From: a virus
Lineage: Duplodnaviria > Caudoviricetes
IMG/VR virus record: IMGVR_UViG_3300033066_001150
Span: 33,979-97,978 of that record
Direction: 5' to 3' (one strand)
DNA length: 64,000 nucleotides
Below are positions 1,868 through 22,696 of the stretch, one piece after another (the stretch's first letter is position 1; the number at the start of each line of letters is the position of its first letter). The position numbers and the translations under genes are program-made. Under the pieces are notes generated by a model. It did no database searches. It was not told the origin of the DNA and worked only from the letters and a program-made list of their open reading frames with translations.

Positions 1868-2082
1868 TGCCCTCAGTCTCTTTCCCTGCTCCGCTTCTTC
1901 CCCAGCCGGTTCCCCGGGAACGTCAGTGTCTCCGGTGTAATCGGCTTTTCGTATCTATGGGCCCCAGCAATCGCATCTGTGAGGATTGTCAGGACAAGAA
2001 CAAACGACAAGGTCGCCGGGCCAGCAAAGAGTCCAATTGCGGCTGTTGCACATCATTAGGTCGAACACCTCGCGGAGATTAG
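1867..2082 (+). CDS. Small Zn-finger protein
   Basis: CLRC...NRICEDC; TAATG coupling. Confidence 0.55.
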   Translation: MPSVSFPAPLLPQPVPRERQCLRCNRLFVSMGPSNRICEDCQDKNKRQGRRASKESNCGCCTSLGRTPRGD

Positions 2083-2084
2083 AT

Positions 2085-5000
2085 ATGGCGAAGAAGAAAC
2101 CTCGCCCACGTACTGCTTCCACTCCTGTCAGTAATTTCCGTGAACAGTTGATGGACATGGCCCTCAATGCCCAGTCGACCCGCTGGGGGTATCTGCAGTC
2201 ATTGATGGACCCACGTCGGGATATTGATCAGGAGTGTGGGTACGACGCCTCCCGGGAACACGACCCGCAGCTTTATCGGGAACTGTTTGACCGGAACCCT
2301 ATCGCCTCCCGGGTCAATAAACTGTTCCCGTCCGAGACGTGGGGACTTCCCCCTGAAATCTATGAATCGGAGGACCCCAAGGCCAAGACCCCATTTGAAG
2401 AGGCTTGGTTGGAACTGGGGGCCTCCTTGGGTGGGGAGAGCTGGCACGAGGACTTGACTTGTTCGTCTATTTGGGAAGTGCTCCGTCGGGCGGATATTCT
2501 TTCGGGGATTGGTCACTTTGGTGTGATCCTGCTGGGCCTCAGTGATACGGCTGATTTGTCTGAACCCGTAGAAGAGATTGACAAAGAGGGTAAGAGCGTA
2601 TTCACCGCGAAGAAGAAAAGCGGGAATGTTCGAAACGCCAAGCAGCCACGCCGTCTGTTGTACATGCGGGTCTTCGACGAAACCCAAGCCACCATCCAGA
2701 GCCTCGAGACCGATCCCAGCAACCCCCGCTACGGACAACCAACTCACTACAATATCAATTTCTATAATGTGAATAATCAGTCCGATGGGCAAATTGTGTC
2801 CTCTGTGGGGACCAAGGTTGTTCACTGGACCCGTATTATCCATGTCACGGATAACGTTCTTTCTAATGAACTGATGGGTGTGCCCCGGTGCAAGCCAGTG
2901 TTGCATCGACTGCTGGACCTGAACAAGCTTTACAGCGGGTCCGCGGAGATGTACTGGAAAGGAGCCTTCCCCGGCTTGTCCATTGAAACACAGCCCCAGT
3001 TGCAAGGGGATGTGGAAATCGATGCGGAAGCTATGCGCTCGCAGATGTTCGACTACATGAACAGTCTGCAACGCTATCTGACATTGACCGGGATGTCTGC
3101 CAAGACCTTGTCCCCCACGGTGGTCGACCCCACAACGCAGATCAATGTGCAGTTGGAAGCCATTTGTATTGAGTTGGGTGTACCGGTCCGAATTTTCAAG
3201 GGCAGTGAACGTGGGGAACTGGCTTCCAGTCAGGACGCTGCGGCTTGGTTGGACCGGGTTAAAGATCGCCAGCGGATGATTACAACGCCGCGGCTGGTGG
3301 TCCCCTTAGTCAACCGGCTGATTCAAGTGGGGGTGTTGCCGGTTCCCAAGAAGTACGTGACTCATTGGCCGGATATGGCGTCTCTGAGTGAGGAAGAACA
3401 AGCCCGCGTCGGGACACTGATTGTTGACGTCATGGCGAAGTATATCCAAGGCGGCTTGGAAGTCATGATGACACCGATGGACTTTATGATGCGGCTGTTA
3501 CACTTCTCACAGGAGGAGGCCGAGGGGATTTTGGAAGCCGCTATTGAAGCTGCGGACACACAGCAGCAACTCACAACCGACCCTGCCGCTGGACAAGACC
3601 CCGGACAAGGTGGGGCGCCGCCTTTGGGACCGGATGGACAACCCCTGCCCATCGGGCCGGATGGGAACCCTGTTGGACCTGATGGTAAGCCGGTGGAATT
3701 GGGACCGGATGGACAACCGCCCCAGCAAGTGGATGAGGACGGGAAACCTGTGGAACCCGTGGACGAAGAAGGGAACCCGGTGGCGGGACAACAACCCACC
3801 GGGTTCCCTGTCCCGGGTAAAACACCCCCACACTTGGCAGCCTTTGCCAAACAAGCCGCACGTACAGGACGGCCCATTCCTCCGGGGCAAAAACAAGTGG
3901 CTCCGGGACAAGGGAAGCAGCCCATTCCCAAGAAGAAACCACAAGTCCGTAATAGACTGGCCGGGATTGTGGGACAGGCCGTGGACAAGGCCCGGCGCGT
4001 CTGGAATAACAAAGAGGTATACCCCAAGATCAAGGCAATGGGTCTGTTTCTGCGTGAGACCGGACAAGCCATGCCCGGCTATGGTCAAATCTTCTATAAG
4101 ACTGATGGTTCGGGTCAGTGTTGGTACGTGGGCGGGGATGGGGATGGGGACGGTTTCTACAAACTGGTTCAACGCAAACTGAAGACCATCCCCGGTGTCA
4201 AGTCTGTGACCTACGAAGCCGAAGTTTTCCCACCAAAGAATAATAAGTGGCATCAGGTCTACCCCCAGCAGAGGGCATGGGTGGGCAATGCCTTTTGTCC
4301 GACCGGTCCCGGTGGGGGACAGGACAATAGCTGTGCTCCTAAGGGAGGAACCGGACCCACAGATAGTCAACGAATCAGTGCCACAGTGCTAATCATGAAA
4401 ACAAAGACAAGCACTATGGGAGAGAAAGGTACTATCCGCGAAGAAAAACGCCACACAGTCTCTATCAAAGATAAGGAAATTGGGACTATTGTTGAAAGAC
4501 GGATCGCTAAGTCGGCGACTCAAGGTGGCGGTTACGAAAAGGTGATGGAAGCTGTTTATAAGGATGGGACTGTTCTGGGGCAGGTCAGCAGTCTTGTTCT
4601 AGGCAAGGAACGGTTGGCCCAGCACCGTTTGGAGAGAAGCAAGGCTAAGGCGGGGTCCACATCCAACGTCTTCTGTCCCACGGGACCGGGAGGTGGGGTG
4701 GACCCAACCTGTTCCCCCAAAGGTGGCGGCGGTGGAGGTGTCTCCGGCAAGGGGTCCGGTCGCATTTATAACCCGGACGTTGAGGAACGGGACTCGGCAG
4801 GGGTTACAAAGGCAGCCCGTGTGGGAGTGCCTGCCGAACACGTACCGCCTCCACCTCCCATCGGAAAGCTTCCCAATCTGACAGAACACGAACGCGAGGT
4901 CGAATCTAAGTTCGCAGAAGCCTACGAGGCGGACCCGGATGGGGTGGCTGATAAGTTCCGCGAGCTGGTCAAGGCTTCTGCCAAACCGGGTGAGCCGTTG

Positions 5001-5720
5001 ACCTTTGGAACAGACGACGCCAAGGCCCTGACCGACGTGTGGTCCCACCCCGACCAAGACCAGCGTGCGGAGTACCGGGCCAGTCTCAACACTCCCTTAC
5101 ACCAGACAGCGAACGCGATCGCTAAGCGGGCCTTCGTGCGTGAGTTGGACAACCTGCAGGAAGGGGATGAGATTCTGGTGACCGTGGGTGGCTGTGGGGC
5201 TGGTAAAGGTTATGCCCTCAAGAATGTGCCCGAAGCCTTGGCAATGAAGCAGGGTTCCAAGATTATTTGGGACAGTGCCGGAGACCAGAATGCTACGGAG
5301 AACCCGTGGATTCAGAAGGAAGCGGAAGCTCGTGGACTGAAAGTCAACTATGTCTACGTGCATGCTGACCCTTATAAGGCATGGGCCGACCCGGAACGTG
5401 GGGCGATTCAACGGGCCAAAGATCCCAAGGATGGGCGAATGGTGGACGCCAAGGTGTTCGCCGATAGTTATGCCTTGGGGATTAAAAACCACGCGGCGTT
5501 CTATGAAGCGAACAAAGACAACCCCAGTGCTAAGTTTGCCTTCTTGGATAACCGGACGAAACCCAGCCTTATGGATATGATTCCGGACGAAGGGCTGCAG
5601 TTGGACCGCCACGAGTTGTCCAAGTTTGCCGTGAAAGCTGTGGAACAGGCACAAGCCCCGGATCGTGTGGTTCGTGGGGCCTTGATCGGGCAGCGTATCT
5701 GGGCAGGAGAAAACATCTAA
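2085..5720 (+). CDS. Portal protein (DUF1073-like) with C-terminal polyprotein extension ending in a zeta-toxin-like P-loop kinase
   Basis: GGAG RBS before ATG 2085; N-terminal ~490 aa portal-like (VHWTRIIH, GSAEMYWKGA, GVPVRIFKGSERGELASSQD); Pro-rich linker; two tag motifs; VTVGGCGAGKG, IIWDSAG, VYVHADP..A..RA...GRMV of zeta-like kinases. Confidence 0.85.
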   Translation: MAKKKPRPRTASTPVSNFREQLMDMALNAQSTRWGYLQSLMDPRRDIDQECGYDASREHDPQLYRELFDRNPIASRVNKLFPSETWGLPPEIYESEDPKAKTPFEEAWLELGASLGGESWHEDLTCSSIWEVLRRADILSGIGHFGVILLGLSDTADLSEPVEEIDKEGKSVFTAKKKSGNVRNAKQPRRLLYMRVFDETQATIQSLETDPSNPRYGQPTHYNINFYNVNNQSDGQIVSSVGTKVVHWTRIIHVTDNVLSNELMGVPRCKPVLHRLLDLNKLYSGSAEMYWKGAFPGLSIETQPQLQGDVEIDAEAMRSQMFDYMNSLQRYLTLTGMSAKTLSPTVVDPTTQINVQLEAICIELGVPVRIFKGSERGELASSQDAAAWLDRVKDRQRMITTPRLVVPLVNRLIQVGVLPVPKKYVTHWPDMASLSEEEQARVGTLIVDVMAKYIQGGLEVMMTPMDFMMRLLHFSQEEAEGILEAAIEAADTQQQLTTDPAAGQDPGQGGAPPLGPDGQPLPIGPDGNPVGPDGKPVELGPDGQPPQQVDEDGKPVEPVDEEGNPVAGQQPTGFPVPGKTPPHLAAFAKQAARTGRPIPPGQKQVAPGQGKQPIPKKKPQVRNRLAGIVGQAVDKARRVWNNKEVYPKIKAMGLFLRETGQAMPGYGQIFYKTDGSGQCWYVGGDGDGDGFYKLVQRKLKTIPGVKSVTYEAEVFPPKNNKWHQVYPQQRAWVGNAFCPTGPGGGQDNSCAPKGGTGPTDSQRISATVLIMKTKTSTMGEKGTIREEKRHTVSIKDKEIGTIVERRIAKSATQGGGYEKVMEAVYKDGTVLGQVSSLVLGKERLAQHRLERSKAKAGSTSNVFCPTGPGGGVDPTCSPKGGGGGGVSGKGSGRIYNPDVEERDSAGVTKAARVGVPAEHVPPPPPIGKLPNLTEHEREVESKFAEAYEADPDGVADKFRELVKASAKPGEPLTFGTDDAKALTDVWSHPDQDQRAEYRASLNTPLHQTANAIAKRAFVRELDNLQEGDEILVTVGGCGAGKGYALKNVPEALAMKQGSKIIWDSAGDQNATENPWIQKEAEARGLKVNYVYVHADPYKAWADPERGAIQRAKDPKDGRMVDAKVFADSYALGIKNHAAFYEANKDNPSAKFAFLDNRTKPSLMDMIPDEGLQLDRHELSKFAVKAVEQAQAPDRVVRGALIGQRIWAGENI

Positions 5721-5881
5721 TGGCGATCACTGAGAACGCAGAAGGTCAATGGTGGGACGAAGAGGCTGACCGGGTGAACCGGATGGCGGAACTGGCCCGT
5801 CAAAAGGGAATGGTCATTTCGGTGACCCCCAAGGCAAAAGCAAAGGTCAGCAAAAAGAAACCCACCAAGAAGGAGAAATAA
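5720..5881 (+). CDS. 53-aa protein (MAITENAEGQWWDEEADR...KKEK), not in ORF track
   Basis: TAATG overlap with portal stop and with the next ORF; GGAG RBS. Confidence 0.6.
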   Translation: MAITENAEGQWWDEEADRVNRMAELARQKGMVISVTPKAKAKVSKKKPTKKEK

Positions 5882-6093
5882 TGCGGGACCTCCTCAAGCA
5901 AGAAACAACGTGCCTCAGTTCTGTTTGCAAAGAGTGTGGTCGACCGCTCCGGCACGGCGCCAAGGAACTGGATAAACATGGGACGTTGTGTGATGCTTGT
6001 TGGGCGGACCGTGAGATTCGGATACAGGAACACCAACGCCGTATTCAGCGGGATATCAAACGTCTAGGGCTCCGGGGGAAACGGGAATGTTAG
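5881..6093 (+). CDS. Small Zn-finger protein
   Basis: CKECG...CDAC; AAGGAG RBS. Confidence 0.55.
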   Translation: MRDLLKQETTCLSSVCKECGRPLRHGAKELDKHGTLCDACWADREIRIQEHQRRIQRDIKRLGLRGKREC

Positions 6094-6401
6094 ACAGATT
6101 TACTACAGTCATCGAAAAGCCGTTTCCACTCGAGGCCCACGACCGATCAACCCCTTCGGTGGGGGAGTTCTGGGTCTTTGTGGAAGACGGGAACCCGGTG
6201 GCGGTGGAGTTCGTGTGTCCGTGTGGGTGCGGTCATAACCTCCACACACCGCTCGGACTGTCATCTCCGCATCACTGGGAATACCGGGCTGGGAGTGAGG
6301 GGCCGACTTTGTCCCCTTCTGTTCGTTGGACGAGTGGGTGTAAAGCGCATTTCACGGTGACCAATGGCAAGATTCATTGGTACTCTGATTCTGGGAAGTA
6401 G
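6087..6401 (+). CDS. DUF6527-like Cys/His protein
   Basis: FVCPCGCGH...W...PTLSPSV...C.AHF.VTNGKI.W pattern. Confidence 0.6.
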   Translation: MLDRFTTVIEKPFPLEAHDRSTPSVGEFWVFVEDGNPVAVEFVCPCGCGHNLHTPLGLSSPHHWEYRAGSEGPTLSPSVRWTSGCKAHFTVTNGKIHWYSDSGK

Positions 6402-6403
6402 AC

Positions 6404-9400
6404 ATGCCACGGACCATTCCGCAACCTCGGGGCTTTTATAACCGCCGGCTCGGTCAGGGTCTCACACGTCGGGACCCCACCCGCACGGCGACCTTGCGGA
6501 AGATATTTTCTAATGAACTGCGACGACGGATGAGTCGGTTGTTTGCGGATTCGTGGAAGCTGTTGGAAGATAATGGTCTGACAGAGAACGCCTTCTGTCC
6601 GACAGGTCCGGGCGGTGGAGTTGACCCAACCTGCAGTCCAGATCAAATTAGTATACAGCAGGCTTTCGATAGAATGCCATTCGGAGACAACCCCAAGGGG
6701 TACACATGGGCTTCGTTGTCTCTGACTACCTTGGACTCCCTGTTGAAGACAGGAAAGCTCGGATTGATCCATGATGTTGGGGAGTTGTCCGAGGACAGTG
6801 TATTATCTAAAGTGAATTCTAAGAAACTCAACCCTCTAATTGTTACGAAAATAGGGCAGCGGTTTCTTGTTGTGGATGGAAACCATTCTCTCGAGGCGGC
6901 CCGTCGTCTTCGGGTGGATTCTGTGAAAGCCATTGTTCCTAAGAAGTCCCTCTTGTCCTTGAACGCCTTCTGTCCCACTGGAAAGGGCGGTGGTCAAGAC
7001 AATAGTTGTTCCCCTTCCAACAAAGGCATGTCTGCTCCGTTTGAAGCGGTGATGGGTCATTGGGACGCCATGCGCTCCAAAGACGCCTATAAAACAATGG
7101 GAAAGATCTGGAAATCGGACTACGAGGGCACTCGTTGGTTCGACTACACACCAAAGCCGGGGACCAAGGCTTATAAAGAGTTGGATGCTTCGATTAAGTC
7201 CGGAGAACTTGTCCGGGAGTTTGAGGAGCGGTTCGCCTCGGAAGATAAGGAAGTGATGATGATTATCCATCCTTCCTCAGATGACATGTACAACCGAGAA
7301 ACAGCAAAAGTCTCGGTCTACACTTCTTCTAATCGTAACGAAGTCACTCCACATGACCAACCCTTGTCTGGTCGCATTCTGACTCATAATCATCCAGATG
7401 GGGCTAACCTATCCTTGTCTGATGTAAAAACTGCGGTCCGGAAAGGAGTCCAGGAAATTAGGGCGGTTACTCCAGACGGGACCGTGTACAGCCTCAAAAA
7501 GGCAGAAAGCTACTATAAAAAACCAGATGGGACACAACACAAGGCGGTTCGTGGACCGGGACAAGATGCTATTGATAAGCGATTAGGGGAGGCTATTCGA
7601 AAGCATGTAACTCTCGAAGAAGCTCAACTCCCCTTAGGCCAACAGCAAGCCATCTATGAAAAAGTCTGGAAGGCGTTTACAAAGGAACCGTTCGTATCAG
7701 AGTCCGCTGAAGGGGGCCAACACTACACAAGGTACGAGTACACTGTGTCCCGTCGGACGGAGAACGTCTTCTGCCCGACTGGACCGGGCGGAGGTGTGGA
7801 CCCCACATGCTCTCCTTCCAATAAAGGGACAGCGAATGTACCGCAAACTCCGGAAGAGTGGGAAGAGCATTTCCAACATATCAATTTTCTAGGAACGAAG
7901 CGAGTTGTAGAGGACCGTGCAAAAGAGTGGAAGTATCACGCCCCGGTAAACGTGGAAAACGCCGTTGGTCGAAACTTTGAACGGGGTGGGGTCCAGTGGG
8001 AGGAAGGCGGAAATTGCCAACTGGAAACCGGAGTGGTGACTATTTACTCCCGGTCCGTTGGTAGTTCCGTGGAAAATGTGGAACGGATTACAAACCATGA
8101 ACTGATGCATGGTACGTTCGAAAAGGTCTATGATAAGTACCGACGAGAACTGGGGAAGATTACCATAGATCACATTCATATGGATGGGACGCTGAAAGCG
8201 GAACATTTCAACGAATTCCCCACGTATGGTCGAATTCAGGCTCTGTTGGAAAATCATGGCCAGTTCTCTTTAGGCAAGGCCCTACAAAAAGAGGACGGGA
8301 TTACGGACTATAGCCGGGCTTACTGGAAGGATTACGAAGAAGGAAAAGTCAGTTACCATATAGCGGTTCATGAGACCTTGGCGGAAATCGCAGCTATTCA
8401 TGGAACAACTGGTGTTATCCAAGGGGAAAAGGTGTGGCGGGATCTCTACAAAGGCATTCGGGACGAGTATCGGGTTCTCCAAGGTCATCAGTCCCGTCGA
8501 CGTGGTCCCGGTATCCCTAAGCCGGTCAAGAACTACTCCACGGAAACCGTTTATTTGGATGGGGATTTTCGGCGTGTCCCCCCAGAGCAAGCTGTTTTCA
8601 TTCATTGGTGGGATGACGCTGGTTCCCACTGGGGGACTCGGAAGCCCCCGACAAACAATTTCGCCTCTACGCAATTCAATGTCGACGAAGTGGGGGTGCT
8701 GACCGCGGTCCATGTTATTCAGTCCCATCTGGATTCCCGGGATGTGTTAGAACTGGAAACCCAGCCACATATCACGGTTCGGTATGGTCTCCATGATCAG
8801 GAAGCTTCGGGTGTGCGGGCGTTGTACGACAACCAAGTCCCGGTCCGGGTCAAACTGGGTGGCTTGTCCTTGTTCCAGACACCGAAGGCGGATGTGCTAA
8901 AAATTGACGTGGATTCCCGTAGTCTTCCGGCCATTCACGGGCGATTGGGCCTGCTTCCCCACACGAGCACCTTTCCCACGTATATTCCCCATTTGACAGT
9001 CGCCTATCTGCGACCGGGCACAGGTCATAAATACGTGGGGAAAAGCGGTCTGGAAGGGACCGTGTTGACTTTTGATAAGTTGGTGTTCTCGGATGACAAC
9101 CGTCGGCAGACTACCGTGTCCAACGCTTTCTGTCCGACAGGACCGGGGGGTGGACAGGACAATTCCTGTCCACCTAATAGACAGGCGGAAAGTAGCAGCC
9201 TTGTCGTTCCAGTACGGTACACAGGAAAGAAGGGAACGCCTGTAGAGGTAGTCCACAACCCCACTGAAAAAACACTGAAACGATTAGTGAAAAAGGAAAG
9301 GCTCAAGGGGTTGTTGGACCTCAAAAACGGTACATGGCATTTCTGGTCAGAGGAAGATGGGGAGCATGAAGATGTAGCCAGAGGAATGGGACTTTCCTCC

Positions 9401-10837
9401 GGTAATGTGTTCCGTGATGGGATAGAGTATGTTCGCCTCTATGCTATAAAGGACCCTCTTAGTCTGGAGGCTCGGATAGCCACGGCTTCCCATGTGGACA
9501 CACCACTGCCGCGAACACCGTTTCGGGTACACAACGCCTTCTGTCCGACAGGACCGGGAGGAGGTGTTGATCCGACTTGTAGTCCAAAGGGTGGTTCTAG
9601 TCCTGTGACGAAAGCGATCAGGGAATATGGACCAGTTTTGGCCGAGAGTCGTCAGGGTGGGTACACACTTCGAGTACACGACGAAAATCCAAAGTCGGAG
9701 GGACAACCAGCCCATATAAGTGATGAGGAAAAACCTTTTTCTGGTGCTGGTCGTATGACCATCGAGTCCCCAGATGGAGAACTTGTAATCGCTGGGAAGT
9801 GGATGGATTGGGCGGAAGTACATTACCCATCCGACTACACAAAACTCCCGAAAAAAGACAGAGCTGCTCTAGAAGCACAAGAGCAGCTAAAATACGATTT
9901 ACAGAAGAATTTCCATTTTCATAAGGAACGGGGTGGTCTAGTCGCCAACACCTACGACCCTGTCCGTTATCGAGTCTCCAAGTTCGTAAAAGAGTTCACC
10001 GCCCGTGTCAAGTCCACGGTCAAGGATAAACCGTGGTGGGTTGGCTTTATCAATTCTGGATATCAGACGGGTGTGGGTCGAGCATATGACGATCTGAACA
10101 AACCAGCTCTGATGACACCAGAAGAACGCAAAGCTTATCAGGCCGAACGACGGTCCTTCGTTCGGGGCGTTGTAAAGGCGTCCGGTCCGACTGCTCAGAA
10201 GTTGTATGCCTCTGTGGAAGAGGATATTGACCGGATTACAAGTCAGTTGGGAGACAAGCTGCGGGTACAATTGAAACAGGCCCTTGCCGAGGGGTTGTCC
10301 TTACGCAAAGTTGCTAAGGGGATTCTTGCCAAGGTGGAGGAGGAAGGGTTGCGACGGGCCACAAACGTCGCGAACTATCGCACAGTGGAGGCCCATAACG
10401 AGGGTCAGTTAGCGGCCTTTGAAGACTTGGGTGTGACGGATATCGGTGTGTTGGTAGAATGGACCGTGGCTGGGAACCCGTGCCCACTGTGCAAGCCGAT
10501 GGCCGGTGTGGTGCTTCGGCCCAAGGACGCTCATGGATTGATACCCAGACACGTCCATTGTCAGTGCTGTTTCGAGGTCGTGGGAAGTGGGTTCGGGGCT
10601 GATAAGGAGGACCTGATTGTAGACCGATCGGGGATTCGTAAGGCTATCAAGAAATCCATTTCCCGGGAACGTAAGCAGGGCACGTGGAAAGACAAGTTGG
10701 AAGCCACACAATGGAAAGGCCGGTCGGTGCGGGTGGAAGGGCGGCCCTTGTTCAATGAGGAAGCCTCCCCAGCACTTCGGGCTTTCAGTCAATTCGTGAC
10801 TTCGCACAAAGCCGCACAGGTCGAGGAAACACCATGA
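6404..10837 (+). CDS. MuF/SPP1 gp7-like head morphogenesis protein interrupted by a polyvalent cargo array (ParB-like, JAB, HExxH peptidase, 2H phosphoesterase, unknown domains)
   Basis: N-term RRDPTRTATLRKIF and C-term EW..AGNPCPLC...IPRHVHCQC typical of MuF; internal VVDGNH, THNHP..LSLSD, HELMH, HIT...HLT motifs; five tag copies. Confidence 0.88.
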   Translation: MPRTIPQPRGFYNRRLGQGLTRRDPTRTATLRKIFSNELRRRMSRLFADSWKLLEDNGLTENAFCPTGPGGGVDPTCSPDQISIQQAFDRMPFGDNPKGYTWASLSLTTLDSLLKTGKLGLIHDVGELSEDSVLSKVNSKKLNPLIVTKIGQRFLVVDGNHSLEAARRLRVDSVKAIVPKKSLLSLNAFCPTGKGGGQDNSCSPSNKGMSAPFEAVMGHWDAMRSKDAYKTMGKIWKSDYEGTRWFDYTPKPGTKAYKELDASIKSGELVREFEERFASEDKEVMMIIHPSSDDMYNRETAKVSVYTSSNRNEVTPHDQPLSGRILTHNHPDGANLSLSDVKTAVRKGVQEIRAVTPDGTVYSLKKAESYYKKPDGTQHKAVRGPGQDAIDKRLGEAIRKHVTLEEAQLPLGQQQAIYEKVWKAFTKEPFVSESAEGGQHYTRYEYTVSRRTENVFCPTGPGGGVDPTCSPSNKGTANVPQTPEEWEEHFQHINFLGTKRVVEDRAKEWKYHAPVNVENAVGRNFERGGVQWEEGGNCQLETGVVTIYSRSVGSSVENVERITNHELMHGTFEKVYDKYRRELGKITIDHIHMDGTLKAEHFNEFPTYGRIQALLENHGQFSLGKALQKEDGITDYSRAYWKDYEEGKVSYHIAVHETLAEIAAIHGTTGVIQGEKVWRDLYKGIRDEYRVLQGHQSRRRGPGIPKPVKNYSTETVYLDGDFRRVPPEQAVFIHWWDDAGSHWGTRKPPTNNFASTQFNVDEVGVLTAVHVIQSHLDSRDVLELETQPHITVRYGLHDQEASGVRALYDNQVPVRVKLGGLSLFQTPKADVLKIDVDSRSLPAIHGRLGLLPHTSTFPTYIPHLTVAYLRPGTGHKYVGKSGLEGTVLTFDKLVFSDDNRRQTTVSNAFCPTGPGGGQDNSCPPNRQAESSSLVVPVRYTGKKGTPVEVVHNPTEKTLKRLVKKERLKGLLDLKNGTWHFWSEEDGEHEDVARGMGLSSGNVFRDGIEYVRLYAIKDPLSLEARIATASHVDTPLPRTPFRVHNAFCPTGPGGGVDPTCSPKGGSSPVTKAIREYGPVLAESRQGGYTLRVHDENPKSEGQPAHISDEEKPFSGAGRMTIESPDGELVIAGKWMDWAEVHYPSDYTKLPKKDRAALEAQEQLKYDLQKNFHFHKERGGLVANTYDPVRYRVSKFVKEFTARVKSTVKDKPWWVGFINSGYQTGVGRAYDDLNKPALMTPEERKAYQAERRSFVRGVVKASGPTAQKLYASVEEDIDRITSQLGDKLRVQLKQALAEGLSLRKVAKGILAKVEEEGLRRATNVANYRTVEAHNEGQLAAFEDLGVTDIGVLVEWTVAGNPCPLCKPMAGVVLRPKDAHGLIPRHVHCQCCFEVVGSGFGADKEDLIVDRSGIRKAIKKSISRERKQGTWKDKLEATQWKGRSVRVEGRPLFNEEASPALRAFSQFVTSHKAAQVEETP

Positions 10838-12240
10838 ACTCAGATATGACTGACGAAGAATACAATCTGGCACTTCTCCGGAAGTTCAGTCGGGTCTCCA
10901 CACGAAACGCCTTCTGTCCTACTGGTCCGGGCGGGGGACAGGACAATTCGTGTTCGCCGAAAGGGGATTCTGCCTATCAGGAAATGGGGAAACGGGCTGC
11001 TTTTCTACAACTTGAGACCAATGACAAAAAACTCAAGGACGCCTATCTGGGCAGCCAATCGGCTTCTTACGTGTCGGGTCTTGCGGATAAAACCAATGAA
11101 ATGGAAGACAAGAAGCGATGGAGGGCTTTGCATACAGACGCCGAAACCAGTCACAAAGCGGCATTACGTGCCTTGAAGAAGCTGGACGGAGACAAAGACC
11201 TAATCCAATACCATAAGGAAGCGTCCCAGCATCATAGCAATGTCTTAGGCGGTGCGGGGGCCCTTCGTCACTCTACTTACGTCCGTTCGGATATTGGGAA
11301 AAAGCGCCGGGGCGGATCGACACGGAATGCTTTCTGTCCGACTGGTCCGGGTGGGGGAGTAGACCCAACATGTAGCCCCTCCTCCACCACCAAAGGCGGC
11401 GAGGACCTTTACAGCGCAACCCTCGGGAAGGACAAGGTGTGGCGTGTGGGGAAATTACCGGTCCCAGACCACATTCGCAAGCTGGCTATTCCCCCAGCAT
11501 GGACCAATGTGGAAATCAACCCCAACCCCAACGGGACAGTCCTAGCTAAGGGGTTGGATTCCAAGGGCCGGGTCCAGACACGATATAGTGATACACATAC
11601 GGCCCGTCAGTCGGCTGCCAAGTTTGGTCGGACCCGGGAACTGCTCAAAAAGCGCGAACAGATTTTCAAGGAACTGGATAAGGACGCCAAGGACCCCACA
11701 CTCAAAGAGCATGCGGAGTGTCTGAAAGTCATTATGCAGACAGGAATGCGTCCCGGAAGTGATAAGGACACCAAAGCCGAACACGAGTCCTTCGGGGCCA
11801 CGACTTTGCTGGGTCGCCATGTAATTCCCCAAGCGGACGGCAGTGTGGTTCTCCGGCTGGCAACCGGCAAGAACAAAGGCCGGGAGGTCGACTTTCCCAT
11901 TCAGGACAAGGCCACGGCCGCTATGCTGCGGGCGCGGGCTAAGGAAACTGGCAAGTCGGGTCGTTTGTTTGGAACAACGGCAGCCCAGTTGCGGAATTAT
12001 AGTAAGACGAAAGACGGAGGTGGCTTCAAGACGAAGGACCATCGTACGGCGCTGGGCACGGAGACCGCACTGCGGGCTATCAAAGGGATTAGTAAACCTA
12101 GCACCGAGTCCGAATATAAGTCCCGAGTGAAGGAAGTGGCGACTCGTGTTGCTGCGGTTTTAGGGAACACGCCTCCAATCGCCCTCAAGTCCTACATCGA
12201 CCCGCAGGTCTTTACTGCTTGGAACAAGGGATTGAAATGA
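10834..12240 (+). CDS. Type IB DNA topoisomerase preceded by two tag motifs and a helical unknown domain
   Basis: LAIPPAWTNV, GLDSKGRVQ.RY, GMRPG, KDHRT, LGNTP.IALKSYIDP: R-K-R-N-Y catalytic set of bacterial/viral TopoIB. Confidence 0.92.
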   Translation: MNSDMTDEEYNLALLRKFSRVSTRNAFCPTGPGGGQDNSCSPKGDSAYQEMGKRAAFLQLETNDKKLKDAYLGSQSASYVSGLADKTNEMEDKKRWRALHTDAETSHKAALRALKKLDGDKDLIQYHKEASQHHSNVLGGAGALRHSTYVRSDIGKKRRGGSTRNAFCPTGPGGGVDPTCSPSSTTKGGEDLYSATLGKDKVWRVGKLPVPDHIRKLAIPPAWTNVEINPNPNGTVLAKGLDSKGRVQTRYSDTHTARQSAAKFGRTRELLKKREQIFKELDKDAKDPTLKEHAECLKVIMQTGMRPGSDKDTKAEHESFGATTLLGRHVIPQADGSVVLRLATGKNKGREVDFPIQDKATAAMLRARAKETGKSGRLFGTTAAQLRNYSKTKDGGGFKTKDHRTALGTETALRAIKGISKPSTESEYKSRVKEVATRVAAVLGNTPPIALKSYIDPQVFTAWNKGLK

Positions 12241-12407
12241 CAAACCCTCTTTATGATACAGACGCAGATGCTAAGTGGGATGTCAATCCAGCTGATTGGA
12301 GAAATCTTCCGGATAGCGATCTCACGGACGATGACCAAGACGTCCCCACCCCCAAGCATGTCAAGGATGTGCTGGGCTTCGACCCCGACGAAGAGGATTG
12401 GGAATAA
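12237..12407 (+). CDS. Small acidic protein coupled to TopoIB
   Basis: ATGA overlap; 56 aa, Asp/Glu-rich, DWR...TP...VLGFDP. Confidence 0.65.
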   Translation: MTNPLYDTDADAKWDVNPADWRNLPDSDLTDDDQDVPTPKHVKDVLGFDPDEEDWE

Positions 12408-12409
12408 AT

Positions 12410-12682
12410 ATGACAGATGCCTTGTCTAGTTTGACAAGTTCACGGGACTTGACGTTCACTCAACATCGTATGGTCGAACTCCTCCGGGACGAGAGACCCC
12501 ACACACGGTTTGAACTGCGCCAGTGTCTGCGAGATGATCAGGGCACATTGGAAACAATGCGTGTGCACGTATCCCTGCTTCGGAAGAAACTGGTCCCGCA
12601 AGGGTACACGATTCGCAGTGAAAAGCTGGCGGGCGAGTGCTACTATCGCCTTGTCGCTATCACTCATTTGGGGTCGGAATAA
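12410..12682 (+). CDS. Winged-helix DNA-binding protein (OmpR/PhoB C-terminal-like)
   Basis: LT..Q..MVELL...TRFEL....TMRVHVSLLRKKL...I......YRL. Confidence 0.7.
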   Translation: MTDALSSLTSSRDLTFTQHRMVELLRDERPHTRFELRQCLRDDQGTLETMRVHVSLLRKKLVPQGYTIRSEKLAGECYYRLVAITHLGSE

Positions 12683-12754
12683 CTGGTTTATCCGCTGGTA
12701 AAAAAAATTTAACTCTGTAGAGTGTTCCGGACTCTGTCGTTACTCTCGACAGCC

Positions 12755-15700
12755 ATGGAACACTATACCTTCAACTTCACGGGTCGGGCGCGGCGTGAGA
12801 AGCTTCACGGTCGTGAGTTTCTTGTTGTTCCCCTGACAATGATCGTCCCCGGTGTCCTCAACGGAAGCCAAGGGGCGTTATTCTATCCCCCCAGCGAAAT
12901 TAAGCGGAATTCGCAGGCGTGGAATGGTATCCCGTTGACGGTGGGTCACCCCACACGTAACGGCCAGCAACTCAGTGGTCGGGACCCCTCGGTGTTGAAC
13001 GAGACCGGTGTGGGGTTTGTGTTCCATGTCCGTTCCGAAAGCGGTAAGCTGAAAGGCGAAGGTTGGTTTGACGTTGAGGCGGTTCGGAAAGTTGATAATC
13101 GAATCTACGACGCCATTATCAATGGCCGTAAGATGGAACTGAGTACGGGCCTCTTCACGGACAATCACCCGGCGACCCCCGGTTCCAGTTACAATGGGCG
13201 TCCGTACACCCATGTCGCCCGGAACTATCGTCCGGATCACTTGGCTATTCTTCCTGATCAGGTTGGAGCATGTTCCGTGGAAGATGGGTGTGGGGTCAAT
13301 GTCAACATAGCAGCTGATCAAGAAGAGTGTTCCTGTGGCGGTCAGTGTGATGAATGCAAGGCCGGTTTGGAAGAAAACCAAGCTGAGGGGTGCACCTGTG
13401 ACACGTCAGGCCCCGAGGGGTGTCCGGTTCACGGCGACACCGAGAAGGTTACCAACTCCAAGCAAGTGATCTGGAACGAGATTGGCAAGGTGTTGGGGAT
13501 TCTTGAAGCAGTAGAAAATGGAATTGTCCAACCACACTCCAAGAATACGGGACGATTCAAATCACCTAGTGCGGGCACGGGAAAAGGGCCTGTCCACGAA
13601 GCCGCTCAACGAGGTGCTTTGGCACTAGACCCAGATGATCATGCTAAGGGCGCCTCCGCCAAAGCCGAAGCAGATGTTGGGACCAACCCAGCTAGCTGGG
13701 TGGAGGATGAGGATATTTGGGATCGAGCTAAGAAGGCAGCGGATGCTGGGGAGTACGACGCCGACACTTATTGGGCTGTCGTGTCCCATATCTATAAACG
13801 GATGGGCGGCAAGTCCAAGTCGGAAGGGACTACCGACAACGCAGACGACGACTGCCAGTGGGTGACCGCTAGTGGGACCCCTATCTGTATCAAGGGCGGG
13901 GAAGTCAAGAAGGGCCCTTCTGCTCTCAAAAAAGCAGCCGCCAGTGACGGCAAGAAAAGTTCCCACTTCAAAACCAAGGACCGGGACGAAGTCGCCCAGA
14001 AAGAAGGTTTCCGCAAACATAGTGACAAACAGAAGGCACAGGACAAGGCGTTGGGGAAAGCCAACAAAGACGCCATGGATAAGGACCTTGGAGATCTGAA
14101 AAAAGAGCTCTTTGGCAAACAGGGGAAGGCTCAGGCTGCCGGGGAAGTCCACAAGAGGGACCCCATGTTGACCGTTAAGGGCGCCGCCAAAGTGATTGGC
14201 AAGCATCTCAAGTCGGGTCTGTCTAAGGCCGGCGCTCTTGCGGATATGATTGGAACAAAACTGCTGGGCAAGGACGACTTCGAAGCGATCAAAAACATCC
14301 CAGATGATGTGAAATCCCGGTTCCGGAACTTGTTCAAGAAGGGCAAGTTCACGTCCAATGGGGTTGTAGCAATTCATCCAGTCACATTGGAGTGCCTCGT
14401 GGAAATGGGTCTTGTCTACAACGCTCGTGTGAACAACGCTTTCTGTCCAACCGGTCCCGGTGGCGGTCAGGACAATTCCTGTTCCCGGTACGGTGACGGT
14501 GGTTCCTCTAAAGAAAAGGCCGTGGCCAAAGCTTTAAGCAACTTCAAGATCAAAGAGAACGGGGAATGGTCTTCTGTTAAGGTGGGGTCCCGTGCTTACA
14601 AGATTAGAAAAGTCGGTTCCGGTTACGAAGCTGTCAGTCCTCTTAAAACAAGGACAATTGGGAAAACCGCAGAATCCGCGTTGACCTCTGTTATAGATGT
14701 TCGTGACATCCCAAAGGGAACCGCCACGGACATCGGGGCCAAAGGCCAACAATTCAATAACCCCAAATCCGATGAGGACGCCCAGTTCTTTAAGTCCCGG
14801 GCAAGTGCTGAGGCATTTGTGAAGGAAGCGACGGACAGGGGGTATGATGTAGACTATTCCCACAAGGGAGGCACGTCCCAAGTCCGCATTCAAGGTGTGA
14901 CAGACGACAACAAGAAAGAAATCCGGGCCCTTGGTGATAAGCACGGTCGTGAGAAATCGATCTGGGAACAACCTGTCCCTCCACCACGTGGGACCGCCGC
15001 GAAGGACTTGGAAAAGTCCGCGGTTAGTAAACGCCAACTCGCCAAGGAGTTGAAGGCGGAACGCGCAGCACGGGAAGCCGCCGCAAAGGCCCCTCGAAAA
15101 GATGAGGAGGTGTTTGCACGGTGGAAAGCCAAACAGAAGAAAACGAACAACGCCTTCTGTCCTACTGGTCCTGGTGGGGGTCAAGATAACTCGTGTTCGT
15201 CCAAAGGTGGAGGTGGAGGTGTTAAGGTAGGGGACAAGGATGCGAAAGGCCGCACAGTAATTTCCGACGAGGTCGCATCCATGGGGGCGTCTCTAGCAGA
15301 CAAACTCAACACTGCGGGTCGCAAAAGCGATGCGGCCGTAGAGGTATACTCCAATGCTAAGTATCATCGGCTGAAGAGAGAGCAGAAGAAAGCACCTGAG
15401 CTCGAAAAGAAAATGAAGGAAGTCACAAAGCAGTATTATAAGGCCCGCGACGAAGCAGAGGCTTTTGAAAAGAAACATGGCTTGTCTGTTGTCGACGCAT
15501 GGGAGGCGGATCGCGGTCGAGGTTGGCCTAGCTACAAGGTGGACACAAGAACTGACACACGTCCTAAGTTCGTACGGCAGTCAGATTCTGAGCCACACAA
15601 AACTGAAAATTCGTCGGTGGGGAATCGCTCCCACTCCGCACGACGCCCACGGTTGGGAGCGAATGTTGTAGGAGTTCGAGATATGAAGCGGGGACAGGTC

Positions 15701-16375
15701 ATCGACGCCCTCGTGAGCAACTGTGATTGCTTTGACGAGGAAGATCGGGACACGTTGAACAGCCTCGAAGACGGCAAGCTGGTCCGACTCTATCAGAGTC
15801 TGATTGGCAACGCCACTTATGAGGACGAAGAAGAGGAAGCGCCGGCCGACGACGAAGAGATCATGGAAGACGACGAAGAGATGGAAGATCCGGCTCCGAA
15901 GAAGAAGCCCGGTGGATTCTTTCAGAAGAAGGCCATCGCCAATCGCCGAAATTCGTCGGATGCCATTGCGGCATCCATTCTTCGCAGTCGACGCAAACCC
16001 ATGTCGGCGGATGAGTGGTTTGGTACCGCTCCTCCGGAAATCAAGTCGGCTGTCCAGAACGCCATGAAGCTGGAAGCGGAAACGAAGCGGGGCCTGCTGG
16101 ACCGTCTTACGGCCAACGTCGCCGACGACAAGGTCCAGTCGGTGCTCAATTCCCTCAAGGACAAGTCCATCGAAGAACTCGAAGGACTGCTGTCCCTGTT
16201 GCCGCCGCCGCGGGCCATCAACGCCCCCAGCTTTATTGGGGCCGCGGTGCCGTTCCCGGGTCGCACCACGAACGAACAAGCCATCAGCAATGATGACGAT
16301 GATGTTCTGCCACTGCCCACCATCAACTACGCCGATGAGTTCGGGACTCGGCGCAAGACTGCCACGGTTTCGTAG
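12755..16375 (+). CDS. Prohead protease (DUF2213-like) fused to inserted cargo domains and a C-terminal scaffold
   Basis: VPGVLNG, WNGIPLTVGHP, ELSTGLF, RPDHLAILPDQVGACS..DGCG; charged helical C-terminus; position before decoration/MCP genes; two tag copies. Confidence 0.88.
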   Translation: MEHYTFNFTGRARREKLHGREFLVVPLTMIVPGVLNGSQGALFYPPSEIKRNSQAWNGIPLTVGHPTRNGQQLSGRDPSVLNETGVGFVFHVRSESGKLKGEGWFDVEAVRKVDNRIYDAIINGRKMELSTGLFTDNHPATPGSSYNGRPYTHVARNYRPDHLAILPDQVGACSVEDGCGVNVNIAADQEECSCGGQCDECKAGLEENQAEGCTCDTSGPEGCPVHGDTEKVTNSKQVIWNEIGKVLGILEAVENGIVQPHSKNTGRFKSPSAGTGKGPVHEAAQRGALALDPDDHAKGASAKAEADVGTNPASWVEDEDIWDRAKKAADAGEYDADTYWAVVSHIYKRMGGKSKSEGTTDNADDDCQWVTASGTPICIKGGEVKKGPSALKKAAASDGKKSSHFKTKDRDEVAQKEGFRKHSDKQKAQDKALGKANKDAMDKDLGDLKKELFGKQGKAQAAGEVHKRDPMLTVKGAAKVIGKHLKSGLSKAGALADMIGTKLLGKDDFEAIKNIPDDVKSRFRNLFKKGKFTSNGVVAIHPVTLECLVEMGLVYNARVNNAFCPTGPGGGQDNSCSRYGDGGSSKEKAVAKALSNFKIKENGEWSSVKVGSRAYKIRKVGSGYEAVSPLKTRTIGKTAESALTSVIDVRDIPKGTATDIGAKGQQFNNPKSDEDAQFFKSRASAEAFVKEATDRGYDVDYSHKGGTSQVRIQGVTDDNKKEIRALGDKHGREKSIWEQPVPPPRGTAAKDLEKSAVSKRQLAKELKAERAAREAAAKAPRKDEEVFARWKAKQKKTNNAFCPTGPGGGQDNSCSSKGGGGGVKVGDKDAKGRTVISDEVASMGASLADKLNTAGRKSDAAVEVYSNAKYHRLKREQKKAPELEKKMKEVTKQYYKARDEAEAFEKKHGLSVVDAWEADRGRGWPSYKVDTRTDTRPKFVRQSDSEPHKTENSSVGNRSHSARRPRLGANVVGVRDMKRGQVIDALVSNCDCFDEEDRDTLNSLEDGKLVRLYQSLIGNATYEDEEEEAPADDEEIMEDDEEMEDPAPKKKPGGFFQKKAIANRRNSSDAIAASILRSRRKPMSADEWFGTAPPEIKSAVQNAMKLEAETKRGLLDRLTANVADDKVQSVLNSLKDKSIEELEGLLSLLPPPRAINAPSFIGAAVPFPGRTTNEQAISNDDDDVLPLPTINYADEFGTRRKTATVS

Positions 16376-17031: not shown

Positions 17032-18192
17032 ATGTTCGTGGATTACGTGCTCAATGGTCAGGGACATGGTCCCGTGGCCGAGCAGCTGATGGGGACTCAC
17101 TTCGATCCCGGTCTTCTCCGACCGTATATCGACAGTCGTGGTCGCAAGGTTGTGATGGTCCACACGGGCCAGTTCGCCACCAACAAAGACACGGGTCGTC
17201 AAGAACCCATCTACAAGAAGCGCCTCGTGAGCGAGCTTGTGGCGGGTGGGATGTACTCCCCGGTCTTCAACGCCACGTCCCTGCGGAAGCAGGAGTGGGT
17301 GCAGCTGGATTCGGTGGTGCTCAAGGCCGCCCGTGCCCGGTTGCGAGCGTGGGGGGATTTGGCCGCGTCGAACACTTATAGCGGTTTCAACGGCATGAGC
17401 CGGACCGTGCTCGAACACGAGCAGATGAGTGATCCCGGCGAGGCGATGGTCGATATGGATGGCCTGACCGAAGGCCGTTCGGACCGTCCCCGGTTCGATC
17501 TGCAGGGTCTCCCCCTGCCGATCACTCACAGTGACTTCTGGTTCAGTTCGCGGCAACTGGCGGTCTCCCGGAATACGGGAACCCCGCTGGACGCCACGAT
17601 GGCCGAAGCCGCTGGACGCCGCGTTGCCGAAATGATTGAGAAGACGACCATCGGCACCATCACGGGGATGCGGACGAGCAAGGTGGGCAGCCTGCTGTCC
17701 GCCGCACCGCAGGTCTACGGGTATACGAACTACCCGCAGCGCATTACCAAGAACGACCTCACTGTTCCAACCGGTTCCAATGCCGGTTCGACGGTGGCTG
17801 ACGTTTTGGAAATGCGGGATATGTTGTACGACGTCAACCGCTTTGGCCCGTTCATGCTGTACCACAGCAAGGACTGGGACCAGTTCATGGACAACGACTA
17901 CGTCCTGACCGGTGGCAACGTTGCAACTCAGACCCTGCGCGAGCGCCTTCGGGCCATTGAAGGGATTCAGGATGTCCGTCGCTTGGACTTCCTGACCGAT
18001 ACCTTCACCCTGTTGATGGTCCAGATGACCCCGGATGTGGCCCGTGCCGTGATCGGGATGGACCTGACGACGGTGCAGTGGGAATCGCAAGGCGGTATGC
18101 GCTTGAACTTCAAGGTCATGTGCATCCACGTGCCCCAACTGCGCAGCGACTTCAACGGTTCGTGCGGGATTCTCCACGCCACCACGGCGTAG
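17032..18192 (+). CDS. Major capsid protein (HK97 fold, linocin/encapsulin-like group)
   Basis: 386 aa; NATSLRKQEWVQLD, LPLPITHSDF, YGYTNYP, FKVMCIHVPQLRSD; strong codon bias; position. Confidence 0.9.
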   Translation: MFVDYVLNGQGHGPVAEQLMGTHFDPGLLRPYIDSRGRKVVMVHTGQFATNKDTGRQEPIYKKRLVSELVAGGMYSPVFNATSLRKQEWVQLDSVVLKAARARLRAWGDLAASNTYSGFNGMSRTVLEHEQMSDPGEAMVDMDGLTEGRSDRPRFDLQGLPLPITHSDFWFSSRQLAVSRNTGTPLDATMAEAAGRRVAEMIEKTTIGTITGMRTSKVGSLLSAAPQVYGYTNYPQRITKNDLTVPTGSNAGSTVADVLEMRDMLYDVNRFGPFMLYHSKDWDQFMDNDYVLTGGNVATQTLRERLRAIEGIQDVRRLDFLTDTFTLLMVQMTPDVARAVIGMDLTTVQWESQGGMRLNFKVMCIHVPQLRSDFNGSCGILHATTA

Positions 18193-19672: not shown

Positions 19673-20326
19673 ATGTTCGACAAATTCCCCGCAAAAGCGT
19701 TCCGTAACTGGCTGTCGTTGGGTTCGCCCCATCGACGGACAAGGTCTGTGAACGCGAAACGTCAGCATTTTTCGGAAACAACAGCTTCTGGAAAATTCAC
19801 GGAAGGGGCCTCAGTGACTAATAAGAAGAACGTGTTGATTGTGTTGATATTTTTTGCGACGACAGCCGTCACGAATTGTGTGCTTTTGCTGGCCGCTAAC
19901 TTGACGGACGAACCTCAAGTTGTGGCGGAGGCGATGCCGCAGATTTTCGAGTCTGTACGGTTGACATCCATGTGTGTGCTGGGCGCTACGGCCGGGACAC
20001 TGTTGCGGCTGTGCTGGGCGCCAACCAAGGAATTGGTAACAGTAGAACCGCGGGGGCTCATTGTCCTGTTAGCGCGGAAAGCAATGGTCTCTATGGTGTG
20101 TGGGGTCTTTGTGACACCTGCCATTTTTCGGTTCACGCCACTAATTCCGGAACCGGACTTGCTCGTGCTTGTGAGTGGTCTTGTGGCCTTCTGTGGGGAT
20201 GTGGTCGTCATGCCCATCCTTATCAATCTACAAACAAGAGTTGCTTCTCGCGGTGAGAAGATTGTGGATAGTGTGCTCGGTGACGAATCAAATCACAAAA
20301 AAGGAAAACGGAATGTCCCTGATTGA
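19673..20326 (+). CDS. Multi-pass membrane protein, holin-like (alternative start GTG 19814)
   Basis: About four hydrophobic segments and a basic C-terminus; two in-frame starts each with an RBS-like purine run. Confidence 0.55.
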   Translation: MFDKFPAKAFRNWLSLGSPHRRTRSVNAKRQHFSETTASGKFTEGASVTNKKNVLIVLIFFATTAVTNCVLLLAANLTDEPQVVAEAMPQIFESVRLTSMCVLGATAGTLLRLCWAPTKELVTVEPRGLIVLLARKAMVSMVCGVFVTPAIFRFTPLIPEPDLLVLVSGLVAFCGDVVVMPILINLQTRVASRGEKIVDSVLGDESNHKKGKRNVPD

Positions 20327-20543
20327 GCTGCTCTCCTTGGTCAAAAAGTACGGTCCTCTGTTCCAGCAACTGGGACCATACATCACTCAGCTGGTCTCCC
20401 TGATCCGGGAAATCATCGCCATCCTGAAGTCCGATGTCCCGCCCACCGTCGGAACCAGTACGGATATCACTCTGGACGAGTTCTGTGCACAAAGCGGTCT
20501 GTCGGAAGAACAGGCCAAGGAACTCGCCGCGGCTTTCGAGTAA
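20313..20543 (+). CDS. Small amphipathic protein
   Basis: AAGGA RBS; MSLIELLSLVKKYGP... Confidence 0.6.
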   Translation: MSLIELLSLVKKYGPLFQQLGPYITQLVSLIREIIAILKSDVPPTVGTSTDITLDEFCAQSGLSEEQAKELAAAFE

Positions 20544-20592
20544 TACGTCCAGACTTTCCCCCTTTCCTTCCCCCAGCAATGCAGGTGTGACA

Positions 20593-21393: not shown

Positions 21394-21394
21394 T

Positions 21395-22237: not shown

Positions 22238-22692
22238 TGCACACCCTGTTGCTTTCCTTAGCTTTGGTTACGGGCCTCGAGGTTGTGGACCACACATCCC
22301 AATCCCCCGGGATGACGGTGCAGGACCACTGTGTCCCCCGTCGTTCTTTGGAAGTGGTGGTCCACACCCTCCCCGTCCCCAAAGCTAAGAGGAATGTGGG
22401 GTACACAACGCGGTCGGCGGTGAAATTTTGGTATCACGGAGGTTACTGGCCCCAAGCCAAACATCTCAACGAAGGGGAACATACGGGGCTGTTCGACACA
22501 CGTTGGTTGTCCACTCTTTCTCCCCAAGATTTGTTGAACCTGCATAGCGACGCCCACGAGGGTCGGGTGAACTGGGAATATGCTTTCCGTCCCGGAGAAT
22601 TTGTAGTACCTGAAAAAGTGACTGTCCCGACTCCAGCCCGACGGATGGTCCAACGTTGCATCAATGGTCGTTGCTACTTGATTTGGGAATAA
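22237..22692 (+). CDS. Exported His/Cys protein
   Basis: Signal-like N-terminus; HL...EH...LH.DAH; terminal CINGRC. Confidence 0.6.
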
Positions 22693-22696
22693 AGAC

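Follow-up and report, generated by a model that had tools for sequence, protein, structure and literature searches.

We analyzed a 64,000-nucleotide window of the IMG/VR record IMGVR_UViG_3300033066_001150 (positions 33,979 to 97,978), which is part of a single 97,978-bp contig (54% G+C) from an uncultured phage, and examined a short cysteine-containing peptide, hereafter the tag, that recurs in its head genes. We conclude that the tag is probably a prohead-protease site followed directly by a portable handle, and that the polyproteins bearing it are likely to be cut into separate cargo units. The first part of the tag, of the form φ-x-P1 (here [TV]-x-N, then A or V), would be the recognition site of the phage's own DUF2213 protease, with P1 preceding the predicted scissile bond (↓). 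The second part, the loop F-C-P-T-G-x-G-G-G-x-D-x-x-C together with a Gly/Ser-rich linker, would be a handle that is kept on the N-terminus of the downstream unit.

According to this model, the portal, MuF and protease-scaffold proteins would bring their fused enzymes into the procapsid, while the topoisomerase IB (TopoIB) open reading frame (ORF) product would enter by way of its leader or tag. The activated protease would then cut before each loop and at V-F-N↓A of the capsid protein, whereupon some dozen free units would remain inside the head, to be delivered along with the DNA. These released units would comprise TopoIB, a 2H/Acb1-like phosphoesterase, a Zeta-like kinase, units with JAB-like and zincin-like motifs, and several of no assigned function. 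Cleavage, the presence of the units in the virion and their ejection are steps that we infer from the sequences.

Copies of the tag in four head genes

Six-frame translation located 11 copies of N-[AV]-F-C-P-T-G-[PK]-G-G-G-(QDNS or VDPT)-C, all on the plus strand and all within the ORFs at 1986-5720 (portal), 6404-10837 (MuF), 10834-12240 (TopoIB) and 12722-16375 (protease-scaffold), as the first-pass annotation of this DNA had reported. The portal ORF holds tag 1 (4287-4334, WVGN↓AFCPTGPGGGQDNSC) and tag 2 (4665-4712, STSN↓VFCPTGPGGGVDPTC). Five lie in the MuF ORF: tag 3 (6587-6634, LTEN↓AFC...VDPTC), tag 4 (6962-7009, LSLN↓AFCPTGKGGGQDNSC), tag 5 (7763-7810, RTEN↓VFC...VDPTC), tag 6 (9122-9169, TVSN↓AFC...QDNSC) and tag 7 (9533-9580, RVHN↓AFC...VDPTC). 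The TopoIB ORF holds tag 8 (10906-10953, STRN↓AFC...QDNSC) and tag 9 (11326-11373, STRN↓AFC...VDPTC), and the protease-scaffold ORF tag 10 (14435-14482, RVNN↓AFC...QDNSC) and tag 11 (15149-15196, KTNN↓AFC...QDNSC). The motif had been described as absent from the rest of the window; this absence extends to all six frames of the whole 97,978-bp contig. A degenerate DNA pattern for the loop matched 11 sites in the window, compared to 0.00 expected from 100 shuffles.

The 11 tags are 74% identical as DNA and 87% identical as protein. Pairs of codons encoding the same residue were identical in just 49% of cases, and Ser was encoded by both the AGY and TCN families. Because the copies vary in this manner at silent sites, selection on the loop acts at the level of the peptide and not of the DNA, as first proposed, and recent DNA-level copying of the tag is ruled out. 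P3, the residue two places before Asn, was T or V in 10 of the 11 copies and S in the other.

The initial view that the copies sit at domain boundaries is likewise supported. In the window proteins and the other tag proteins scanned, Pfam domain envelopes fell between tags and none extended across one. Tag spacing ranged from 107 to 1455 aa with a median of 246, save for two tandem pairs separated by 30 aa, and the last tag was in every case followed by 92 aa or more. By this placement, the tags mark off units about the size of a domain.

The residue before the loop and the predicted capsid maturation site

A DNA pattern for N-x-F-C-P-T-G-x-G-G-G retrieved 61 stretches from IMG/VR, with 137 copies in large ORFs, and a loop profile built from 135 copies (alignment A1) was searched against 1.84 billion representative proteins. 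This search, which the first-pass annotation had recommended, returned 1,474 protein clusters at E<=1e-3 (408 of them at E<=1e-10), most of which were polyvalent proteins of the MuF or portal kind; a single protein held as many as 10 copies. Among the best 150 matches the core F-C-P-T-G-x-G-G-G-x-D-x-x-C was constant, and the residue three places before the first Cys was N, R, K, L/F or H, depending on the lineage. In 95% of 156 multi-tag proteins P1 was uniform within the protein, a value reached by none of 1000 shuffles. P1 was also uniform across the genes of a genome: it was K in all five genes of locus L149, R in both genes of each of L064 and L148, and L in two genes of L066, the last within a longer consensus, LPxGLxL↓AFC. 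One locus among the tag-bearing loci tabulated had a mixed P1. Upstream logos read [TV]-x-N↓[AV] for the N-type, E-[SR]-R↓[AG] for the R-type (E at P3 in 207 of 272 cases), x-x-K↓[AV] for the K-type and G-L-x-L↓A for the L-type. In many ORFs the first tag is preceded by a leader of ~4-25 aa that ends in the P3-P1 consensus of the lineage; because leaders this short still keep the consensus, these sequences suggest that site recognition or cutting matters even where there is no large part to remove.

The Asn that had been called invariant is thus invariant within the lineage of this phage, but other lineages carry R, K, L, F or H before the same loop. This substitution bears on whether the polyproteins might cleave themselves, either through cyclization of Asn, in the manner of inteins and asparagine peptide lyases, or through an N-to-S acyl shift at the F-C bond. 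In this phage an invariant Asn does occupy the putative scissile bond, and a nucleophilic Cys lies three residues downstream. However, since the other lineages replace Asn, its chemistry cannot be the general mechanism; moreover, loops of 13 residues are not known to serve as catalytic scaffolds. We give self-cleavage almost no credence.

Where a protease was visible, its family tracked the dialect, as judged from domain assignments: N-type loci contained 38 DUF2213 and 0 S78 proteases, and K-type loci contained 7 Peptidase_S78 and 0 DUF2213 proteases. The expectation that the loop would be restricted to DUF2213 phages was not borne out, since it is also found in phages whose proteases are of the Peptidase_S78 family, whose capsids are HK97-type and whose portals belong to other families, N being replaced by K, R or L.

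The same P1 residues appear at predicted maturation sites of the capsid proteins. The major capsid protein of the window (17032-18192, plus strand; DUF6260, with weak similarity to encapsulin shells) reads V78-F79-N80↓A81-T-S-L-R-K-Q-E-W, and we predict that it matures at V78-F79-N80↓A81 (17263-17274, plus strand) based on motif conservation and the point at which homology starts. For the N-type, [VTI]-x-N-A-[TS] was present in 13/13 full capsid homologues from the first tag loci, and the motif recurred at many loci of the 80 closest relatives of the protease, whether tagged or not. The window capsid protein resembles encapsulin shells and the capsid proteins of isolated phages from about residue 80 onward, so that its first 79 residues constitute, by sequence comparison, an N-terminal extension; the similarity to type 1 encapsulin shells (E 2e-4 to 8e-3) starts at or just before the start of the encapsulin chain. 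In Brevundimonas phage StAshley, R-T-N↓A-T follows an extension of 41 aa. R-type HK97-type capsid proteins displayed [ED]-x-R in 27/27 cases, followed by A in 26, about ten residues before N-S-x-G-G, while K-type capsid proteins displayed x-x-K-[AT] in 6/6, in the same place as the R-type. In a MAFFT alignment R↓A and K↓A shared columns with K103↓S104 of HK97 gp5; the HK97 scaffolding domain comprises 103 residues (PMC10275583). Taken together, these comparisons indicate that the P1 residue of the tag is the residue of the predicted capsid maturation site in three lineages (N, R and K).

The DUF2213 prohead protease domain (12755-13366, plus strand) was assigned from conserved residues, an AlphaFold2 (AF2) model and fold matches. 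H76, S141 (in ELSTGL) and D172-H173 were invariant in 22 DUF2213 homologues and are probably catalytic; a GACSxxDGCGV tail was also conserved. The AF2 model (predicted local distance difference test score, pLDDT, 87) matched T4 gp21 (5jbl) best in Foldseek (prob 1.00, E 1.2e-3, TM 0.58 on the target), followed by the proteases (assemblins) of Epstein-Barr virus, Kaposi's sarcoma-associated herpesvirus, herpes simplex virus and human cytomegalovirus, with marginal E-values and 9-19% sequence identity. A sequence search of the PDB with the protease profile gave nothing significant. As modeled, the domain has the gp21/assemblin fold, and its gene has the context of a prohead protease, lying between the portal/MuF and capsid genes and fused to a scaffold. 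Proteases of this kind recognize φ-x-P1 sites; the site is L/I-x-E in the case of gp21 and V/L-x-A↓S in that of assemblin. For SPN3US gp245, a single motif, AXE, marks the cuts in the capsid protein, the portal and the ejection proteins (PMC10052503). By its sequence, [TV]-x-N↓A has the φ-x-P1 form of the gp21, assemblin and gp245 sites. The earlier proposal that the prohead protease cuts after Asn therefore gains comparative support, from [VT]-x-N↓A at the start of the HK97 fold in the capsid proteins of this phage and its relatives and from the predicted gp21/assemblin fold, but Asn is not general to the tag.

It is very unlikely, in our estimation, that a different enzyme makes the cuts, be it a unit of the MuF array bearing an HELMH motif or a host protease acting after injection. 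The HELMH motif is located in MuF unit 3, and metallopeptidase domains are the proposed processors of polyvalent proteins in Iyer et al. (PMC5512222). Nevertheless, Pfam and domain scans matched no metallopeptidase family in this unit, and a zincin or host enzyme would leave unexplained both the match of P1 to the capsid site and its tracking of the prohead protease family.

Several further features of the protease genes were noted. The nearly invariant GACSxxDGCGV tail (13262-13294) supplies a second Cys pair, and a Cys-rich stretch, CSCGGQCDECK...CTCD, follows downstream (about 13310-13420); the K-type S78 protease of L149 (17335-18912) likewise has a double zinc-ribbon stretch after it. Protease ORFs begin with a conserved M-E-x-φ-x-φ-N (in the window MEHYTFN, 12755-12775; alignment A2), a segment that AF2 leaves disordered (pLDDT <50); MEHYTFN may be a further Asn site at the protease's own N-terminus. 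The L-type locus L066 (NCBI assembly GCA_900217895.1) has, next to its portal gene, a cassette (19755-23200) encoding a membrane/Pro-rich protein, an exported protein, a papain-like protein and a 480-aa Cys-rich protein with a thioredoxin fold, which resembles a cassette at 19673-22692 of the window. The papain-like protease, of a kind also noted in the window, was considered as a tag processor due to its position by the L066 head genes and was set aside; by BLAST it had no significant similarity to two window ORFs from the corresponding stretch.

The loop as a proposed portable handle

Close relatives of the DUF2213 protease were found on at least 592 viral contigs. The Cys loop occurred in just 17 of the best 80 relative loci, leaving 63 of these 80 without any tag, which again runs counter to a simple association between the loop and DUF2213 phages. 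Median lengths in tagged versus tagless loci were 955 versus 575 aa for the portal, 1181 versus 594 aa for MuF and 651 versus 510 aa for the protease. The long polyproteins of tagless relatives (L074, L081, L092, L097, L101, L105 and L131) have other junction peptides directly after φ-x-N: N↓GGPGSG followed by a His/Gly/basic stretch, N↓[AS]-W-[ST]-[DE]-x-A-R, or N↓A-x-N-P..D..G-R-[FW]. Across 102 DUF2213 loci, searched with patterns that left the preceding residue free, Asn preceded every copy of the Cys loop (75/75), GGPGSG (9/9) and W-S-D-x-A-R (15/15), and P3 was mostly V, T or L. Because three unrelated tag types all follow Asn in DUF2213 loci, comparison of these sequences indicates that the site belongs to the lineage and that the handle is a separate, portable part. 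The Cys loop itself is identical across lineages with different proteases, portals and capsid proteins.

A broader scheme can be drawn from these observations, although we regard it as somewhat doubtful. Tailed phages might share a limited stock of exchangeable handles (the Cys loop, GGPGSG-His, N-P-x-x-D-x-x-G-R-[FW] and W-S-D-x-A-R), each usable in any HK97-fold head and always placed right after the local prohead-protease site, such that loading, release and delivery would follow for any enzyme fused behind site and handle. The handle would bind to a conserved element inside the procapsid or on the protease, and its Cys pair would serve as a metal or redox switch, freeing the cargo upon maturation or host entry.

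Within the loop, D, [PN], [ST] and the second Cys were conserved in a logo of 133 unique contexts, despite having been left free by the retrieval pattern; in the same N-type logo a Gly/Ser-rich linker of ~8 residues followed the loop, and P3 was T, V, L or I. Our preferred guess, made with low confidence, is a docking role for the loop, be it in loading, in anchoring to the shell or in presentation to the protease, with the Cys pair holding the loop together via a metal or a disulfide.

The peptide could instead serve in targeting or loading only, like an encapsulin cargo-loading or scaffold-binding peptide, with the adjoining residues forming a binding epitope and not a scissile site. The similarity of the capsid protein to encapsulin shells from about residue 80, the tag-linker-domain layout, which mirrors that of cargo-loading peptides, and the stand-alone TopoIB ORF, which has no structural carrier, are all consistent with such a role. 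So is the near absence of tags from cellular genomes: the loop is essentially confined to phage contigs, being found on just 5 metagenome-assembled contigs among 185,579 species-representative genomes. However, the same loop is used across different capsid, portal and protease families while the upstream residues track the lineage, which fits a protease site better than a shell epitope, and most tags belong to portal, MuF or scaffold fusions, which enter the head in any case. We consider targeting alone to be quite improbable.

Alternatively, the loop might be an inter-domain staple or linker that is never cleaved, the polyproteins remaining intact, with metal or disulfide hinges or bridges between copies and with the upstream residue reflecting lineage drift. 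The two Cys and the Asp are indeed invariant and are followed by a flexible Gly/Ser linker, the protease domain has a conserved Cys pair of its own at its end (GACSxxDGCGV), and cases of polyvalent proteins that are transferred or encapsidated at full length are reported by Iyer et al. (PMC5512222). On the other hand, a classical zinc site needs more ligands than the two Cys and one Asp of a single copy, and zinc knuckles or ribbons have four Cys/His ligands, compared to two Cys and no conserved His per copy of the loop. More importantly, drift does not explain why P1 is uniform across the genes of a genome, lineage-specific and equal to the capsid-site residue in three lineages, nor why Asn precedes three unrelated tag types in one lineage. 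A staple is accordingly an unlikely explanation.

Several observations weigh against a protease site followed by a retained handle, which nonetheless remains our favored interpretation. An invariant loop of 13 residues far exceeds what a protease subsite needs, and AF2 modeled the tag alone as coil (pLDDT 76). Cutting at every tag would part the conserved leader of MuF from its core, which would be odd. With regard to the dialects, scans returned 21 K-type and at least 120 R-type stretches, but P1 was set by the retrieval pattern in one or more tags of each locus; the counts per dialect are therefore ascertained, while the uniformity within loci is not. A search of R-type loci found no protease for that lineage, neither the protease nor the capsid protein of the L-type phage L066 was identifiable, and the K-type evidence amounts to 6 capsid proteins and 7 proteases. 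Except where they align to HK97, the maturation sites of the capsid proteins are predicted, too. Finally, tblastn detected no tag among 50,697 records of isolated phages, a weak test given that the low-complexity filter was on.

No Pfam model corresponds to the loop, its motif strings retrieved only unrelated papers from the full-text literature, and Foldseek returned no match for a 35-aa model of the tag. Obligate alternation of the QDNS and VDPT subtypes, suggested by their order in the MuF protein of this phage, was considered and rejected as a general rule: neighboring tags were of different subtypes in 52 cases versus the same subtype in 274, and 164 of 2000 within-protein shuffles reached the observed value. 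Some profile matches (among P0018-P0163) contained a divergent loop, [DE]-N-C-G-[TI]-G-[AP]-G-G-F-x-P-G-N-T-C, which may represent a sister family of the tag. Locus L149 has two adjacent ORFs (6135-6740 and 6743-7903) with a common leader, MIDVLETM[EN]K; in one ORF the canonical loop follows it, in the other a degenerate version, C-G-G-P-G-G-T-M-G-P-C.

Carrier proteins, their cargo and known systems

Carriers were identified by Pfam and PHROGs; full-length matches to Phage_Mu_F, 2H and DUF2213 were below the Pfam curated cut-offs, and the isolated DUF2213 domain was above its cut-off. The genes are ordered portal, MuF, TopoIB ORF, protease-scaffold, a 181-aa protein and the capsid protein. 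The portal polyprotein (1986-5720, plus strand; likely start Met near nucleotide 2085) has a Phage_portal_3 domain at aa 161-483, followed by a Pro/Gly-rich extension, a tag, a 126-aa unit, a second tag and a 350-aa P-loop/Zeta-toxin-like unit. A small ORF between portal and MuF (6087-6401) matched DUF6527 (E 2e-18).

The MuF polyvalent protein (6404-10837, plus strand) consists of an N-terminal leader, five tag-delimited units and a MuF core at aa 1285-1389. Its units include a 2H/Acb1-like phosphoesterase, as well as a JAB-like HNHPDG motif and the zincin-like HELMH motif, both recognized by eye and without a family match. The leader (DPTRT..LR; 6404-6586) is conserved in many tagged MuF proteins (alignment A3). 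Because it always precedes the first tag, the cargo array appears, from these alignments, to split MuF regularly in tagged phages. The stand-alone TopoIB cargo ORF (10834-12240, plus strand), the start of which overlaps the MuF stop by 4 nt, encodes a 24-aa leader, a tag, a 140-aa unit, a tag and TopoIB (aa 213-448). In the protease-scaffold polyprotein (12722-16375, plus strand), the DUF2213 domain on the N-terminal side is followed by the Cys-rich stretch, a long charged region, a tag, a 238-aa unit, a tag and a 407-aa acidic/helical C-terminal part.

Polyvalent proteins combine at least two unrelated effector or enzyme domains in one polypeptide, and this is the case for both the MuF ORF (2H, MuF and at least three other units) and the portal ORF (portal and the Zeta-like P-loop unit). 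Among 55 multi-tag proteins scanned, MuF was present in 36; other domains included ADP-ribosyltransferases, GNAT, 2H, TopoIB, Zeta toxin, sigma factor, HNH and ParB. These arrays resemble the polyvalent proteins described by Iyer, Burroughs, Anand, de Souza and Aravind in 2017 (PMC5512222), both as multi-enzyme polypeptides fused to MuF or portal and in their cargo (ADP-ribosyltransferase, 2H phosphoesterase, GNAT, ParB, Zeta and RadC-like domains). They differ in that a word search of that study turned up no mention of a linker, cysteine or zinc ribbon and its passages on processing favor zincin-like metallopeptidases, whereas here a conserved junction peptide with a site of the prohead-protease type stands at every boundary.

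T4 internal proteins carry a capsid targeting sequence (PMC3012670). The T4 internal proteins and Alt with gp21, and the phiKZ/SPN3US ejection proteins with gp175/gp245 (PMC3012670, PMC10052503), resemble the system proposed here, in that diverse enzymes with a common short N-terminal signal would be packed in the head. A further likeness would be the use of one protease of the gp21/assemblin fold for capsid protein, portal and cargo at the same φ-x-P1 motif. The T4 signal, however, precedes the cut and is lost from the product, whereas the loop lies downstream and would stay on the product, and the T4 signal has no sequence similarity to the Cys loop. In addition, cargo in this phage is chained on portal, MuF and protease instead of being encoded by separate small genes, and one loop is common to lineages whose proteases differ in their P1 preference.

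In HK97, gp5 loses its scaffolding domain through a cut at K103↓S104 by gp4, a Peptidase_S78 protease, and the K- and R-type capsid residues aligned there, K↓A and R↓A, are the same as those before the tags. HK97 has no tagged cargo, while the window phage has a DUF2213 protease, an encapsulin-like capsid protein and Asn at P1. Encapsulin cargo-loading peptides are a possible analogy, as short conserved peptides attached by flexible linkers to unrelated enzymes that end up inside an HK97-fold shell, but they are usually C-terminal and lack both a Cys loop and a paired protease site. The arrangement described here thus departs from the T4/SPN3US systems and from polyvalent proteins in its conserved downstream handle, in the chaining of cargo and in the use of one handle with several protease dialects.

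If this interpretation is correct, the P1/P3 specificity of an uncharacterized prohead protease and the N-terminus of the mature capsid protein could be read from sequence alone. The tags would give exact boundaries for thousands of injected-effector domains in metagenomic phages, many of which have no known family and would be anti-defence candidates; in this phage the effectors would include TopoIB, the Acb1-like 2H phosphoesterase and the Zeta-like kinase. The "site + handle" arrangement would constitute a natural, portable format for loading foreign proteins into phage capsids, and would supply a processing step for polyvalent proteins, a step that was left open in their original description.

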